64,000 nt of DNA from a phage: the sequence record PZ256263.1. One strand, 5' to 3'. Both the position numbers and the translations under genes were made by a program. The number at the start of each line of letters is the position of its first letter. The first letter of the stretch is position 1. Positions 2,627 to 9,438 of this stretch are shown here, piece by piece. The notes beneath the pieces were generated by a model. It was not told the DNA's origin. It searched no databases and saw nothing but the letters and a program-made list of their open reading frames with translations.

Positions 2627-3820
2627 ATGTTTCCAGTAACATTAGAAGATACTGAAGGTAATGTTTTAACGGTCAACCCTCCTTGTTATGGGTTCCTTCA
2701 GCTTCGCAACTATAACGGTGGCGTTGATGAAGATGATGACGAAGATGAATACTTCGACCCTAACATGTATGAGGCAACTCATGGGTGGAATATGCACGTT
2801 CGAGTGTGGCATGAAGAAGCTAACGTTCGTAGTGCTGATGGGGAAGAGTTCCTGTTGAGCCGAGAGATGGATATGTGTAAAATCAAGCATATCTGGAACT
2901 CCGGAACTCACATGAAGATGTTAGGTTTTAGACGTTGGCGTGATGAAAAACCTGTATCCGCAGCTTTAGGTTGGGGTGCTATTGATTACGAAGGCGAGCT
3001 TAAAAACAACATTGAACGTTGGAATGACAAAAACCCTGAACATCGAACCACACCTCGTGCTGTACTGGAAGCTATGGAAGCATTTGTGGACAAAGATCGT
3101 CCCTCCTGTTTACGCTGGCACGATAAAGGTTTTATGGGGGTAGCAACTGAAAATGTTCCTGCTGATCGTTGTCTATTCTATTTGATGTTAGATCGAACCT
3201 TCTATTGTGAAGATGAAGAGAGTCAAGTTGAAACCTTCCTCCACAAATGGTTGGTTGAAGGCTGGACAATCCTTCAGTCTTATGTTTACTCACGAATGGT
3301 TAGCACTTACACTAACCTCTTGGGTGAAACGAAAGCAACTCTGGTTGGTAATGATTGGGATGCTTGTATCTTCCCAGCGTCACTATTTACAGTCGGCATG
3401 GCTGATAAATACGCTGAAGCATTTCAAGTGCCTTGGCGTCAACAGTCGTATAGAGACGGGTGTGGTCACTTCCGTGATGAAGACTTTAAGTGGATTCATT
3501 ATGAGAACGATGAAACAGCAGAATTGCGAGTTAACAACTCAATGTTCTTGCCAGTGATGCACCCCGATCTAGTAAAAGATGGGTCAGAGATACTTAAAGG
3601 TGATAATCTTTTGGTTAACTTTACCCGTCGCGTGTCTAAAAATGAGAGAACAGCTAACAGGCTAATCTACGGCATTCGTGCCGAGGCTAAAGACCTGTTC
3701 AACATCTACAACATTATTCAGCGATTTAGTAGTGGAACTCTGGACCAAAGTTCGGAGTATTCAGTGATTCCATCCTCTGAGTGGGATGGTATTATGAGCG
3801 GATTATTTTTAGGAAAATAA
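2627..3820 (+). CDS. hypothetical protein, first gene of amidoligase/GATase cluster
   Basis: Track ORF 397 aa; tightly packed with downstream genes; no recognisable motif. Confidence 0.6.
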   Translation: MFPVTLEDTEGNVLTVNPPCYGFLQLRNYNGGVDEDDDEDEYFDPNMYEATHGWNMHVRVWHEEANVRSADGEEFLLSREMDMCKIKHIWNSGTHMKMLGFRRWRDEKPVSAALGWGAIDYEGELKNNIERWNDKNPEHRTTPRAVLEAMEAFVDKDRPSCLRWHDKGFMGVATENVPADRCLFYLMLDRTFYCEDEESQVETFLHKWLVEGWTILQSYVYSRMVSTYTNLLGETKATLVGNDWDACIFPASLFTVGMADKYAEAFQVPWRQQSYRDGCGHFRDEDFKWIHYENDETAELRVNNSMFLPVMHPDLVKDGSEILKGDNLLVNFTRRVSKNERTANRLIYGIRAEAKDLFNIYNIIQRFSSGTLDQSSEYSVIPSSEWDGIMSGLFLGK

Positions 3821-5610: not shown

Positions 5611-6228
5611 GTGAGCTTAGTAGCTGATTTTTCTCATTACTATAATGGTACATGGATTGCTAAACGAGCAGGTAATATCAACCTTCCGTGTTTTGTGATT
5701 GGTGTTGAGCAGAGCGGTAACTTCCGCAGTGATGACTTCTCTCACGAAGCAGAACAGGCTCTGTACTTTGTTGTAGAGCAGTGGTACAAGAACGAGCAAG
5801 GGAATCTTCGAAACACTACGATGAACATTCCAGTGTTCGACCCAACCTTGATTCTTGAATCACCTGATGTTGGTTATCTGTTCCATAACGGTAACACTGT
5901 AAGCTGGACTCATATTAACCCTGTTCGTCAGAGAGCAAAGGGTTTAATGGGTAATAAGATTCGAAATGCTCCGGGTGTTGGTCGTGCTATCTCCGGGGAG
6001 ATGGTTTACAGTCTGTTCAATCCTGAATTCGAAGGATTGGTTACTCGTTATATTTACATCAACCCTACTGATGGTAAGGTGCATTATAAAGGTGCACTGG
6101 TAGGACAAGTAGATCTGGAAGCGCCTCGTGACTCTTACGGTCAGCAACCGATGCGACTTCTGGAACACTTTCATCACATTTCTGAAAACCTTAGCAATTA
6201 TAATATTACGTTGGTGGATTCGTTATGA
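5611..6228 (+). CDS. hypothetical protein (cluster member)
   Basis: Track ORF 205 aa starting at GTG with AAGAGG upstream; overlaps next gene by 4 nt. Confidence 0.55.
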   Translation: MSLVADFSHYYNGTWIAKRAGNINLPCFVIGVEQSGNFRSDDFSHEAEQALYFVVEQWYKNEQGNLRNTTMNIPVFDPTLILESPDVGYLFHNGNTVSWTHINPVRQRAKGLMGNKIRNAPGVGRAISGEMVYSLFNPEFEGLVTRYIYINPTDGKVHYKGALVGQVDLEAPRDSYGQQPMRLLEHFHHISENLSNYNITLVDSL

Positions 6229-7328
6229 CAACTGTAGCGCAAACTTTTGGATATCGAGAAGGTCGTTTAACTGAGGAGCATAGTTCAATTGCACTTCAGT
6301 GCGGTGTCGGTATTGAACTTGAACTCGAAGGTTCCGATCATATCGAAGCAGATATGTGGGATTGTACAGAGGATGGTTCCCTGCGTAATGGTTGTGAAAT
6401 GGTATGTTCACGACCTTACAACGGACAGGAGTTGTTAGACGCTATCAACAACCTGAGTGAAGCAGTAGCTGAATCGCACGCCGAGGGGACTTGGCGTTGC
6501 TCTACTCACGTTCATATGGATATGAGGGATGCTGATAGTAATATCCTCAAGAAAACCATTCTCGCTTGGACCTTCTATGAAAAGATGTTGTTCAAGTGTT
6601 CAGGCTATCATCGTTACCGTAGCAACTTCTGCCCTGCTTTCGCAGTGGTACAGGCACAGGTAATGAATGCCTCTGACGCATTTAACTACGACGACGAAGA
6701 GTTCTTCAACCGTCTGGTTCGTTCATGGGATAAGTACACATCCCTAAATCTTCTGCCACTTGCCCAATACGGTTCGATTGAGTTCCGTATCAGTGAGCCT
6801 AAGTGGAAACGTGGTCAACTTCTCAATCTGGTTAACCGCTTCTTGATGTTGAAGAAGCTGGCTTTAGATAACGCAGAGATGAGCAATGATCAGTTTATCG
6901 AGCATTTAAATACTGTACGATTTGCCCCAATGCTTCCTTATCTTCCTCTGGATTACAATCTGGATGAATCGGATTTGCATTCAGGGTATTGTATGGCCCG
7001 TGATGTTTTGTATTGTCGTTCTCATGGAGTAGAGCAATCTGGTCGTATTCGTTTACGTCGAACCAACTCTAACGGAGAAGTTCTTGTTGATTTACGTCTT
7101 ATCTCAGACTTCTACGGATTCCTTGGATATGTTCGAGGGAACGCTAACAACTTGTACCAAGAGATTCTGGTTATGCTTCGTACAACTGATCTATCTACTG
7201 TACGATCTGCACCGGAGCAACGTATCCGTGCTATTTTTGACTTGCTACGTGAGTCAGGCCACAGTGATAACAACATCACAGGGTACATTCCAGATCATCT
7301 GGAAAATCAGTTAGAGCAAGCGCTGTAA
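6225..7328 (+). CDS. amidoligase-like (carboxylate-amine ligase) enzyme, paralog 2
   Basis: Track ORF 367 aa; GIELELEG ... EDGSLRNGCEMVCSRP ... STHVHMD ... YGSIEFRISE, consistent with phage amidoligase family signature as I recall it. Confidence 0.6.
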   Translation: MTTVAQTFGYREGRLTEEHSSIALQCGVGIELELEGSDHIEADMWDCTEDGSLRNGCEMVCSRPYNGQELLDAINNLSEAVAESHAEGTWRCSTHVHMDMRDADSNILKKTILAWTFYEKMLFKCSGYHRYRSNFCPAFAVVQAQVMNASDAFNYDDEEFFNRLVRSWDKYTSLNLLPLAQYGSIEFRISEPKWKRGQLLNLVNRFLMLKKLALDNAEMSNDQFIEHLNTVRFAPMLPYLPLDYNLDESDLHSGYCMARDVLYCRSHGVEQSGRIRLRRTNSNGEVLVDLRLISDFYGFLGYVRGNANNLYQEILVMLRTTDLSTVRSAPEQRIRAIFDLLRESGHSDNNITGYIPDHLENQLEQAL

Positions 7329-7407
7329 TCAATGGGTGCCTCTGGTAAAGGGGCACAATTTAAAGGTTAATTAGATGAAAGGGTTTACCCTTCAGGTGGA
7401 TTAGAAA

Positions 7408-9438
7408 ATTTGTGGCATCGTATTAGCTGGCGGTAATCTGTCAAGCACTGATTTAGACGTATTCAACCAACTCTTTTATGCTGGAGTATTCCGAGGACAG
7501 CACTCCTCTGGTATCTTTGGTCAGCGTAAGAGCACTAAGGAAGTCTTCACTTATAAAGAGGCACTTCCTTCTTTCGCATTCATCCTTCAAGATGAGTACA
7601 AGAAACACACCACTGGTGAAACAGCTTACACTGTAGCACCTTCATGGATTGTTGGTCACAGCCGTCATGCAACGAAAGGTGCAGTTAACGCCAAGAACGC
7701 CCATCCTTTCCAACATGGTAACATCACTCTGGTTCATAACGGAACCTTGATGGACCAAGATCTGTTACCTGACAGCAAAAACTTCGAGGTAGACAGTGAG
7801 AACATCTGCCACTCTATTAACACTATTGGTGCAGCAGAGACTATTCAAAAGCTGGATGGTGCTTTCACCTTAATCTGGCATGATGCTTCTGATAACCGTC
7901 TTCATATCATCCGTAACGAAGAGCGTCCATTCCACCTCGCACGTTGTAACAGGGATTGGTTTGGTGCTTCTGAAGAAGACATGTTGATGTGGATTCTAAA
8001 GCGTTCTAAGTCTCACAAAAACCGAATTGATGAGCACTTTGAATGTAAAGTTGGTACAGAATATATCTTTGATATGTCAAACAACAGCATGACTCTAGTT
8101 GAAGAGGTCGCCCACGAGCTTCCGGTTTTTACGGTAATCAATCGTTGGGGCAATTACTACTCGAACAACTACAGCCAAAGCAGCTATCAAAGTTCCTCAA
8201 AAAGCAGTACAAGCAATCCTTACGACACGAAGCCGGGAGTGACAGCGGCAGACGTTCGTCGAAGAAACGCAGTGGTAAGTCAAAACAAAATCGCAAGCGA
8301 TCGAAACATTGACATTCGCCGCGACATGACTGTGGAAATCACACCACATGAGTTTGTTCCTTATGCAACTGCTGGTGCTGTTCCTTCTCGTGGTAAGATG
8401 ATCGGTTATATCTACGATGAGAAGTCTCAAGAGTATATCGAAGGTGATGTTCATAACGTAGACATTAAGGCTTATCAGGATGCCCTGAAAGACCCTAAAA
8501 TCGTTTACCGTGGGACAGTATCCTGCATCTCCGAAGTTAATGCTATGGTTCGTTTAGTGATCACAGCAGGTCGTTTTGTTGACCCATCTCTGGAGAAAAA
8601 GGAGCCTGAGTCTACTACTGCTGACTTCGATGATGATATCCCTTTTGACATGAATGATAGTTTCGTCAATAAGAATGGCGTTACTATCACTCGTAAATTC
8701 TGGGAAGCACACTCTCACGGGGATTGTGGTGGTTGTGACAAACATATTGATTGGAAGGATGCACCTAAAGCAGTCTTCGCATATCAATGCTACTGGCACC
8801 CTGAATGTCTGGAAGGTTTGACTAAACCTAAAGATGAAGAAGAGGAGGAAACTCCTATTGGTGTTTGTGAAATCTGCGGTGAAGTTAAAACAGAGAATGA
8901 GTTCGATGAAGAGCTTAGTCGTCTTCGTGGTGAAGATATCTGTAAAGTCTGCGCTGTAGATGTAAAGAAGAAAGTGTCTAATGCTACGATCAAAGATGGT
9001 TATGTCTGGATTAAAGCAACAGATACAACAAACGCCCGTCGTCCTGAATTTGCTTTACGTGTAACTGAAGATATGATTGGTCGTATGACTGTATTACCTT
9101 CCTCAGCGAAACAGACAGGCATCACTCTGGAGGATGTTGTTGATGCTTATGTTGAGAAACGTAGCAACAGTATTTTTGCAATCTCAACTAAGCCAAAAAA
9201 GGAGGAACCTGCTGAGAAAGCAGGTGTGTTTCCTGAATCACGAACAGCTCTCCGCAAAACTGTTGTCAGCTTCGACGGAAACCGAAGCACTGACTTCACC
9301 AAAGCCATGTGGTCAACCCTCGGATACTGCTCAGAGTGTTTTAAGCAGATTCCGTGGCGCGATGCTGAAAGTTGTACGCTTGGTTCTATGAATCAAGTTT
9401 ATTGTAATTCTCCTAAATGTTCATTGAATAGAGGTTAA
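7408..9438 (+). CDS. class II (Ntn-type) glutamine amidotransferase domain protein with Cys-rich C-terminal region; predicted ATT start
   Basis: Frame is open from the TAG at 7402-7404; translation begins (I)CGIVLAGG...FRGQHSSGIF and continues ...GHSRHATKG...NAHPF...LVHNG, the class II GATase pattern; no in-frame ATG/GTG/TTG before 7747; AGGTGGA at 7394-7400 sits 7 nt before ATT. Confidence 0.65.
   Translation: MCGIVLAGGNLSSTDLDVFNQLFYAGVFRGQHSSGIFGQRKSTKEVFTYKEALPSFAFILQDEYKKHTTGETAYTVAPSWIVGHSRHATKGAVNAKNAHPFQHGNITLVHNGTLMDQDLLPDSKNFEVDSENICHSINTIGAAETIQKLDGAFTLIWHDASDNRLHIIRNEERPFHLARCNRDWFGASEEDMLMWILKRSKSHKNRIDEHFECKVGTEYIFDMSNNSMTLVEEVAHELPVFTVINRWGNYYSNNYSQSSYQSSSKSSTSNPYDTKPGVTAADVRRRNAVVSQNKIASDRNIDIRRDMTVEITPHEFVPYATAGAVPSRGKMIGYIYDEKSQEYIEGDVHNVDIKAYQDALKDPKIVYRGTVSCISEVNAMVRLVITAGRFVDPSLEKKEPESTTADFDDDIPFDMNDSFVNKNGVTITRKFWEAHSHGDCGGCDKHIDWKDAPKAVFAYQCYWHPECLEGLTKPKDEEEEETPIGVCEICGEVKTENEFDEELSRLRGEDICKVCAVDVKKKVSNATIKDGYVWIKATDTTNARRPEFALRVTEDMIGRMTVLPSSAKQTGITLEDVVDAYVEKRSNSIFAISTKPKKEEPAEKAGVFPESRTALRKTVVSFDGNRSTDFTKAMWSTLGYCSECFKQIPWRDAESCTLGSMNQVYCNSPKCSLNRG

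Follow-up and report, generated by a model that had tools for sequence, protein, structure and literature searches.

The 64,000-nucleotide (nt) stretch of phage DNA analysed here (sequence record PZ256263.1; referred to below as the window) encodes a class II glutamine amidotransferase whose translation, judged by sequence comparison, very probably starts at an AUU codon at positions 7408–7410, directly ahead of the codon for the catalytic cysteine. ATT recurs as a start codon in the family of phage enzymes to which this protein belongs, and it is mostly accompanied there by a short hairpin that ends beside a Shine-Dalgarno (SD) sequence; hairpin, SD sequence, spacer and AUU may together form an initiation module of their own. 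The window is that of a Kuravirus, a phiEco32-like Escherichia coli podophage, with 99.7% identity over 2.7 kb to Escherichia phage ev_rybdy3 and 96–98% identity to NJ01, SU10, Paul and others. Coordinates refer to the window, all features lie on the + strand, and negative positions are relative to the start codon.

Start site of the amidotransferase gene

The letters at the site read ...CAGGTGGATTAGAAAATTTGTGGCATCGTA..., and the frame is open from the AAA codon at 7405–7407, which stands between TAG and ATT, to the stop at 9436–9438, beginning K-I-C-G-I-V-L-A-G. The ATT, which would be read as formylmethionine, is followed by TGT (7411–7413), the cysteine nucleophile and residue 1 after removal of the methionine, and then by GGC ATC GTA; taken from this ATT the full coding sequence (CDS) spans 7408–9438 (2031 nt; 676 codons and the stop) and is as long as phi32_83 of phiEco32. 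Upstream, an SD-like AGGTGGA at 7394–7400 is separated from the ATT by the 7-nt spacer TTAGAAA (7401–7407), and the in-frame TAG at 7402–7404 is the stop of a small upstream open reading frame (uORF; see below), parting it from the frame of the enzyme. The first canonical start codon in the frame is the TTG at 7747, followed by the ATG of codon 115 (7750–7752), which is the start in most public records and splits the amidotransferase domain.

A sequence-only reading made earlier had placed the SD sequence, TAG, ATT and TGT at these positions, which match the sequence to the base; we found AGGTGGA at the same position, 7 nt before the ATT, and a rescan likewise gave no in-frame ATG, GTG or TTG before 7747. 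Its central claim, that initiation at AUU gives the enzyme a Met-Cys N-terminus, is upheld by the position of the ATG in homologues, by selection on the 5′ codons, by the catalytic motifs and by the recurrence of ATT in the family. Codons 1–113 (7408–7746) hold no ATG, GTG or TTG, with ∼4.8 expected from the codon usage of the window (P ∼0.007), and the remaining 563 codons of the CDS hold 23. No second long frame with a comparably long start-less 5′ part was found among the window's open reading frames (ORFs) of 100 codons or more. Such a start-poor 5′ part is no rule of the family, as SU7 and Aeromonas phage BUCT695 have a methionine at codon 11–12. The 86 nt around the site (7355–7440) are present in 99 phage records (in 69 of the 99 at ≥99% identity), and a sequencing error behind the upstream TAG is ruled out, the leader being carried by all 99.

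The N-terminal class II (Ntn) amidotransferase domain covers approximately residues 2–235 (7411–8112). Comparison with Pfam gave 55.1 bits for GATase_6 (cut-off 27; residues 76–176, spanning residue 115), 27.4 bits for GATase_7 (cut-off 25) and 21.2 bits, under the cut-off of 23, for GATase_4. A profile of the phage homologues matched PurF, GlmS and AsnB in the PDB (E 2.6e-6 to 5e-3), and hhalign against the N-domain of E. coli GlmS returned a probability of 93%, pairing GHSRHATKG with AHTRWATHG, NAHP with NAHP, VHNG with VHNG and VDSE with TDTE (phage and GlmS respectively). M1, C2, G3, I4 and V5 are invariant among 7 aligned phage homologues. With GlmS, PurF and AsnB the phage protein shares Met-Cys-Gly-Ile-Val and the GH.R.AT.G, NAHPF, VHNG and D-S/T-E motifs, the GlmS residues aligned with the phage motifs being R73, T76, N98, G99 and D123; the residues of a glutaminase are present, namely the Arg that holds the glutamine carboxylate, the Asn-Gly oxyanion hole and the Asp for the alpha-amino group. 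With regard to the four-layer alpha-beta-beta-alpha fold of Ntn enzymes, a single-sequence AlphaFold2 model of the N-domain had a mean predicted local distance difference test score of 33.6, too low for the model to be used.

Codon 115 comes after the Cys, the first Arg, the R..T motif, NAHPF and HNG. In comparisons of Kuravirus with Nieuwekanaalvirus and Suseptimavirus, codons 2–113 gave a ratio of non-synonymous to synonymous substitution rates (dN/dS) of 0.066–0.085 at a dS of 1.8–2.6. This is indistinguishable from the value for codons 115–245, which argues that codons 2–113 are translated and constrained. A product starting at 7750 would be unable to act as a glutaminase, because the Cys and most of the catalytic residues lie upstream of it.

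Start codons across the phage enzyme family

To avoid bias, viral and metagenome contigs were searched with an alignment that left out the N-terminus (alignment A2), and the codon ahead of the Cys was then read; the 162 resolved loci reduce to 122 distinct contexts. The codon is ATG in 100 of the 122, and it is with this ATG, ahead of Cys-Gly, that the ATT of the window aligns. ATT itself occupies the position in 17 distinct contexts and TTG in four, GTG is found in none, and no near-cognate start codon besides ATT was seen in the family contexts. One further context reads ATG-TGC-TGT: in L084/L147 (IMGVR_UViG_3300025276_000050 = Ga0208814_1000166) the letters ATG TGC TGT GGA encode Met-Cys-Cys-Gly, with an extra Cys before the Cys-Gly. 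The ATGs of the homologues usually have an in-frame stop a few codons upstream, and in Proteus J3S, Vibrio Vp_R1 and Salmonella SE131 they take the form ATG-TGT-GG behind an SD sequence. Further cultured phages have ATG (PaP3, QDWS535, PPAT, Pecta, Salgado and JB8) or TTG (DES1).

The ATT cases occupy 11 separate places on a neighbour-joining tree, each beside ATG lineages, and a scan for the pattern GAGGAT-N6-ATT-TGT-GG added four ATT lineages, bringing the total to 15. The ATT-TGY-GG junction is present in all 15, which share at most 59% amino-acid identity with one another in the N-domain and have intact ORFs of 375–676 amino acids where the contig allows. In thirteen of them the stretch from the preceding stop to the Cys holds no canonical start in frame; the exceptions, L209 and L212, have an upstream TTG or ATG without an SD sequence, placed inside or against the hairpin described below. 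ATT is thus a long-lived, recurrent start codon of the family, which uses it in about one-eighth of its lineages and GTG never.

A hairpin beside the Shine-Dalgarno sequence

In the window, a hairpin (AAGGG-TTTA-CCCTT, 7379–7392, −5.3 kcal/mol; hairpin A) lies so that its 3′ end falls at −16 relative to the ATT and 1 nt ahead of the SD sequence, and it is kept in BUCT695. An alignment of 12 leaders made with MAFFT was ungapped and left the stems out of register, and counts were taken instead from a positional scan for a perfect stem of 5–7 bp with a loop of 3–5 nt and its 3′ end at −17 to −13 from the start, with ATG contexts and shuffled sequences as controls. Such a hairpin was found in 12 of the 15 ATT lineages and in none of 100 ATG contexts (Fisher P = 7e-14), an association that persists with wider position windows; among 11 shuffled ATT leaders the mean number of matches was 0.4. 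One of the four TTG contexts also has one: in the TTG-started L129 (JACSEE010000056.1) a 5-bp hairpin, ATCTC-taaat-GAGAT, ends at −14, and such hairpins may accompany weak start codons more generally.

The hairpins of the 12 ATT lineages have their 3′ ends at −14 to −16, 0–2 nt from the SD sequence. Their stems are unrelated in sequence (AAGGG/CCCTT, TCAAGCT/AGCTTGA, GCCTT/GAGGC, GAACCT/AGGTTC, AATGC/GCATT, GAGGTC/GACCTC, GCTAC/GTAGC, AGAGT/ACTCT, CCGGC/GCCGG, GTCGG/CCGAC and GACTC/GAGTC). When compensatory change maintains a stem at a constant distance from the SD sequence and the start codon, a role at the ribosome is indicated, both if ATT originated repeatedly and if it is ancestral and has reverted. 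The SD sequences of the ATT lineages are also strong, with a median duplex energy of −9.5 kcal/mol as against −5.9 kcal/mol in ATG lineages (P = 0.0025), and in nine ATT lineages besides Kuravirus and L037 a spacer of exactly 7 nt separates (A)GGAGGA or GAGGA from the ATT. The leaders of ATG sister lineages are quite different from ATT leaders.

A second hairpin was considered in Kuravirus. This hairpin B, formed by GGUUUACC and GGUGGAUU, would sequester the SD sequence and belongs to the minimum free energy structure of a 122-nt fold; it was rejected as a conserved structure because both substitutions found in BUCT695 break it (−6.1 to −2.3 kcal/mol) and hairpin A is kept. No hairpin stacked on the SD helix came up in a search of the literature, and the combination of hairpin, SD sequence and AUU across a phage enzyme family is, as a comparative observation, new.

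Conservation of the leader and its upstream open reading frame

The leader from −49 to +8 (∼57 nt) is 96.5–100% identical across Kuravirus, Nieuwekanaalvirus and Suseptimavirus; its flanks in the same three genera are ∼60% identical in the 3′ end of the amidoligase gene and 70–80% identical in the amidotransferase codons, with synonymous change saturated. In BUCT695, whose amidotransferase is 52–55% identical and whose flanks are 41–58% identical, there are only two substitutions between −38 and +13. The leader motif is single-copy in the window, and thus not a repeated regulatory box, and a permissive Rfam scan of 7250–7550 gave only chance-level matches (best E = 0.67).

Within the leader lies the uORF, ATG AAA GGG TTT ACC CTT CAG GTG GAT TAG (MKGFTLQVD*; 7375–7404), of nine codons and in frame with the amidotransferase. 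It falls within the coordinates covered by the sequence-only reading, which did not mention it; it contains hairpin A and the SD sequence, and its stop lies 3 nt before the ATT. It is preceded by an invariant TTTAAAGGTTAATTAG (7359–7374), in which a weak SD-like AAAGG (7362–7366) stands 8 nt ahead of the ATG of the uORF. Across ∼97 records of phages of E. coli and Shigella no variation is seen in the uORF, its ATG and stop included, or in the spacer, and BUCT695 has kept them. Both BUCT695 substitutions change an amino acid of the uORF peptide (F to L and V to A); one falls in the loop of hairpin A, extending the stem, and the other at the mismatch position of GGNGG. The constraint on the leader acts on the RNA and its layout and not on the uORF peptide, because these changes alter the peptide yet keep the hairpin and GGNGG.

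Other ATT lineages differ in this respect. ORFs ending at −7 or −6 are found in L087 (30 codons), L090 (at least 88 codons) and L182 (eight codons); in L085 and L158 the frame that ends near the AUU lacks a canonical start, and L100 has no nearby stop. Coupling to a uORF was rejected as the common denominator of the ATT lineages, there being no such ORF in L085, L158 and L100, and it would be a lineage-specific addition at most. The idea that the UAG or UAA in the spacer serves as a frame-specific stop was also rejected, as its frame differs between lineages.

Comparison with known AUU starts and related systems

Natural AUU starts are very rare, the two classical cases in E. coli being infC and pcnB, and the AUU start in Kuravirus is best seen as one more example of this type. 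The likeness to infC, which follows thrS, is close: its AUU is preceded by an SD GGAGGA at −13 to −8, which leaves the same 7-nt spacer as in Kuravirus, and the UAA stop of thrS lies in frame at −6 to −4 (UAA GGU AUU), which reproduces the arrangement of stop, 3 nt and AUU with the SD sequence inside the upstream ORF. Written out, the junctions are GGAGGAAUAAGGU-AUU in infC, GGUGGAUUAGAAA-AUU in Kuravirus and GGAGGAUUAGAAA-AUU in the metagenomic L037. The two systems differ in that the upstream ORF is a full gene in infC and a nine-codon mini-ORF in Kuravirus, in that infC has no hairpin against its SD sequence whereas Kuravirus and 12 of the 15 ATT lineages have one, and in that the autoregulation of infC by initiation factor 3 (IF3) has no obvious counterpart in Kuravirus. 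Reporters of the infC junction showed re-initiation and de novo initiation to have roughly equal shares, with coupling doubling the use of the AUU (PMC3592434).

pcnB, the gene for poly(A) polymerase I, also combines AUU with an SD sequence, but differs in having GAGGUG close to the start and neither a hairpin nor a uORF. Its AUU start is seen, according to Binns and Masters (2002) as cited in PMC3592434, as a means of limiting the amount of an enzyme that could do harm. Gene 83 of phiEco32 corresponds to the gene described here; its leader is identical, and this ATT is annotated there as first codon.

Two further systems resemble parts of the Kuravirus arrangement. In Bacillus subtilis PurF a propeptide of ∼11 residues is removed to expose the N-terminal Cys, and its length is close to that of the uORF plus two codons, but in Kuravirus a conserved stop interrupts the frame. 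In synthetic bicistronic designs a short leader ORF carries the downstream SD sequence and stops beside the downstream start; Kuravirus differs from these in being a natural element with an AUU as downstream start and with stop and start 3 nt apart instead of overlapping.

Proposed mechanism and alternatives

In the mechanism that we propose, initiator tRNA would read the AUU at 7408 as the start of a 676-residue protein, and deformylase and methionine aminopeptidase would then expose the Cys as residue 1, Cys being a permitted penultimate residue for removal of Met. The SD sequence 7 nt upstream would support the weak AUU codon with the geometry of infC, and the uORF may, by analogy with infC, deliver terminating ribosomes for re-initiation at the AUU alongside de novo initiation. 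The hairpin at the 5′ edge of the SD sequence would belong functionally to the region in which initiation at the AUU takes place. It may stack on the SD helix, may insulate or stabilise the contact of the SD sequence with the ribosome, or may stabilise or protect an mRNA that is translated poorly. Overall the enzyme would be expressed at a low level, possibly in an IF3-sensitive manner.

Our proposal that hairpin, strong SD sequence, 7-nt spacer and AUU constitute a distinct, selectable initiation module and a genuine determinant of AUU initiation is a tentative one, to which we give somewhat less than an even chance. Several points weigh against it or against the wider picture. The hairpin criteria were fixed after the first examples had been seen, and the ATG contexts used for comparison are phylogenetically non-independent. 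Three of the 15 ATT lineages have no hairpin, and E. coli infC and pcnB likewise lack one. In Kuravirus itself the SD sequence AGGTGGA has one mismatch to the consensus and, at −5.9 kcal/mol, is weaker than that of most other ATT lineages, and the alternative hairpin B is iso-energetic with hairpin A (−6.1 and −5.3 kcal/mol respectively). The uORF is not common to the ATT lineages, which tells against coupling as a general mechanism. Lastly, virion proteomics of SU10 was searched with a truncated 63.8-kDa model of the amidotransferase (PMC4281155).

A possible alternative, which we hold to be somewhat doubtful, makes translation dependent on the uORF: ribosomes would start at AUG 7375, melt the hairpin, stop at UAG 7402 and re-initiate at the AUU, with de novo initiation minor. 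AUG 7375 would be used through the weak SD AAAGG or, if a promoter lies at 7359–7374, with a very short or absent leader, and the SD sequence inside the uORF would hold the ribosomes, making the element a natural bicistronic design. The invariance of uORF, ATG, stop and spacer in ∼97 records and their persistence in BUCT695 speak for this, as do the layout shared with the thrS–infC junction, the fact that the BUCT695 changes keep the hairpin and GGNGG and not the peptide, and the upstream ORFs ending at −7 or −6 in L087, L090 and L182. It is weakened by the lineages without such an ORF (L085, L158 and L100), by the weakness of the uORF's own SD sequence, and by the hairpin, which starts 1 nt after the ATG and should hinder binding of the 30S subunit.

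It is unlikely, in our view, that the hairpin beside the SD sequence acts outside initiation, as a processing or stability signal or as the site of a phage regulator, or that it was simply inherited together with the ATT from an ancestral leader. ATT leaders (GGAGGAT(T)AG...ATT) are closer to one another than to the leaders of their ATG sisters, which fits common descent or exchange of leaders, and infC and pcnB do without such a hairpin. Yet the stems, unrelated in sequence, are always Watson-Crick paired and always end at −14 to −16, and stems of this kind at a fixed position therefore indicate selection on structure, pointing to the ribosome and not to a sequence-specific factor.

Two further readings, which depart from initiation at the AUU, are highly improbable. 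Read-through of UAG 7402 from the uORF AUG would yield a 12-residue propeptide (MKGFTLQVD-X-KI) to be removed autocatalytically in the manner of PurF; the uORF is indeed in frame with the enzyme with a single stop between them, and propeptide processing is known for this enzyme class, but the TAG is invariant in 99 records and never a sense codon, the 64-kb window has no tRNA gene and hence no suppressor, the other ATT lineages always have ATT before the Cys and mostly no in-frame upstream ATG, and the ATG homologues have no propeptide. Nor is the real product at all likely to start at TTG 7747 or ATG 7750, leaving the 5′ 342 nt as a decaying remnant and the protein without glutaminase activity: gene finders choose this start, and SU10 proteomics detected the protein with that model (nine peptides), but codons 2–113 have a dN/dS of 0.07–0.085 at a dS >1.7 and no stop in any of 99 records, the start would lie inside the Pfam domain and past the Cys, Arg residues, NAHPF and HNG, and no SD sequence is seen before 7750 beyond the one marked by annotators. 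Mass spectrometry of the SU10 preparations detected the amidotransferase together with the ATP-grasp enzyme and other ‘early’ proteins (PMC4281155).

Annotation and genomic neighbourhood

The call of this start codon is not new, as it is already in the phiEco32 reference annotation: the CDS begins at exactly this ATT in the phiEco32 RefSeq record (NC_010324.1, phi32_83, YP_001671828.1), in the SU10 RefSeq record and in BASEL phages Bas86–94 (confirmed on the sequence). Full-text searches, outside whose scope the phiEco32 genome and transcription papers lay, found no discussion of the start codon, uORF, hairpin or family-wide pattern. NJ01, Paul, ev_rybdy3 and most other records have a CDS of 562 amino acids from ATG 7750, which leaves a 420-nt ‘gap’, and other internal codons serve as annotated starts in EP335 (codon 59), YF01 (codon 27) and SU7 (codon 11); the CDS in the BUCT695 record likewise begins at an internal codon. 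A gene is annotated across the ATT region in eight of 60 sampled records. The mis-started records that were checked individually lose the catalytic Cys and, mostly, other glutaminase residues, and automatic gene finders will repeat the error for every ATT-started member of the family.

The database names ‘L-glutamine-D-fructose-6-phosphate aminotransferase’ and ‘glucosamine-6-phosphate synthase’ are unsupported, because the acceptor domain is unlike that of GlmS, PurF or AsnB. The C-terminal ∼430 residues (8113–9435) differ from those enzymes in being Cys-rich: a low-complexity linker of Ser, Tyr and Gln is followed by several Cys-rich stretches, which resemble zinc-binding motifs (CGGC...H...C, CEICGE...CKVC and CSEC...C...C), and this part matches no Pfam family. 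The C-termini of homologues are shorter and different, total lengths being 375–509 amino acids.

The gene belongs to a conserved cluster consisting of a COOH-NH2 ligase, a hypothetical protein, amidoligase, amidotransferase, DUF7195, a small ORF, an ATP-grasp-like enzyme and a GGACT-type cyclotransferase. The amidoligase gene directly upstream (Pfam Amidoligase_2) occupies 6225–7328, with its stop TAA at 7326–7328. HNH endonuclease genes are inserted beside the amidotransferase gene in some phages: Escherichia phage vB_EcoP_YF01 (L221) has such an insertion at 2743–3249, just past the amidotransferase stop, and ORF24 of Pseudomonas phage UFV-P2 is an HNH gene between the amidoligase and amidotransferase genes (PMC3890496). 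Escherichia phage 172-1 (NC_028903.1) is the only record in which the tblastn match to the N-domain is in two pieces, which suggests an indel or frameshift.

Intergenic region upstream of the leader

Just past the amidoligase stop lies a G+C-rich intergenic hairpin (7336–7356; 8 bp, loop GGTAA) that is terminator-like with a weak T-run. Its stem shows compensatory change in Suseptimavirus (GCGCTCT/AGGGCGC vs GTGCCTC/GGGGCAC), and in SE131 and L046–L049 the corresponding place is taken by a more evident terminator, which has a T-run. This suggests that a transcript boundary parts the amidoligase gene from the amidotransferase gene.

The invariant stretch at 7359–7374 was considered as a candidate promoter for gp36, the phage sigma factor of phiEco32, in which case the transcript would begin near the uORF ATG. 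The relatives L007, L043 and L045–L048 have TTTAAATGTA(A) ∼20 nt before the start, and this contains AATGTA, the published core of phiEco32 gp36 promoters. The invariant Kuravirus counterpart is TTTAAAGGTTAA, however, with AAAGGT in place of the AATGTA element, and the region belongs to early genes. A scan for sigma-70 promoters in the same region found nothing on the + strand.

Significance

The practical value of these observations is that the gene is mis-annotated in most records; their scientific value lies in the ultra-conserved leader, the infC-like junction of uORF, stop and AUU, and the recurring module of hairpin, SD sequence and AUU. If the module is real, a stem-loop set against the helix of SD and anti-SD sequences would make a weak AUU workable or conditional, for example dependent on IF3, and this arrangement would have been kept or re-acquired in at least 12 deeply diverged lineages, with Kuravirus adding an infC-like uORF; bacterial initiation at non-AUG codons would then have a structural determinant that has not been described before. 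The family supplies natural variants, among them an E. coli phage amenable to genetics, with which to ask how the bacterial ribosome accepts AUU. The same variants bear on whether a structure stacked on the SD helix helps initiation, and on whether phages use IF3-sensitive starts for low or timed production of a glutaminase.

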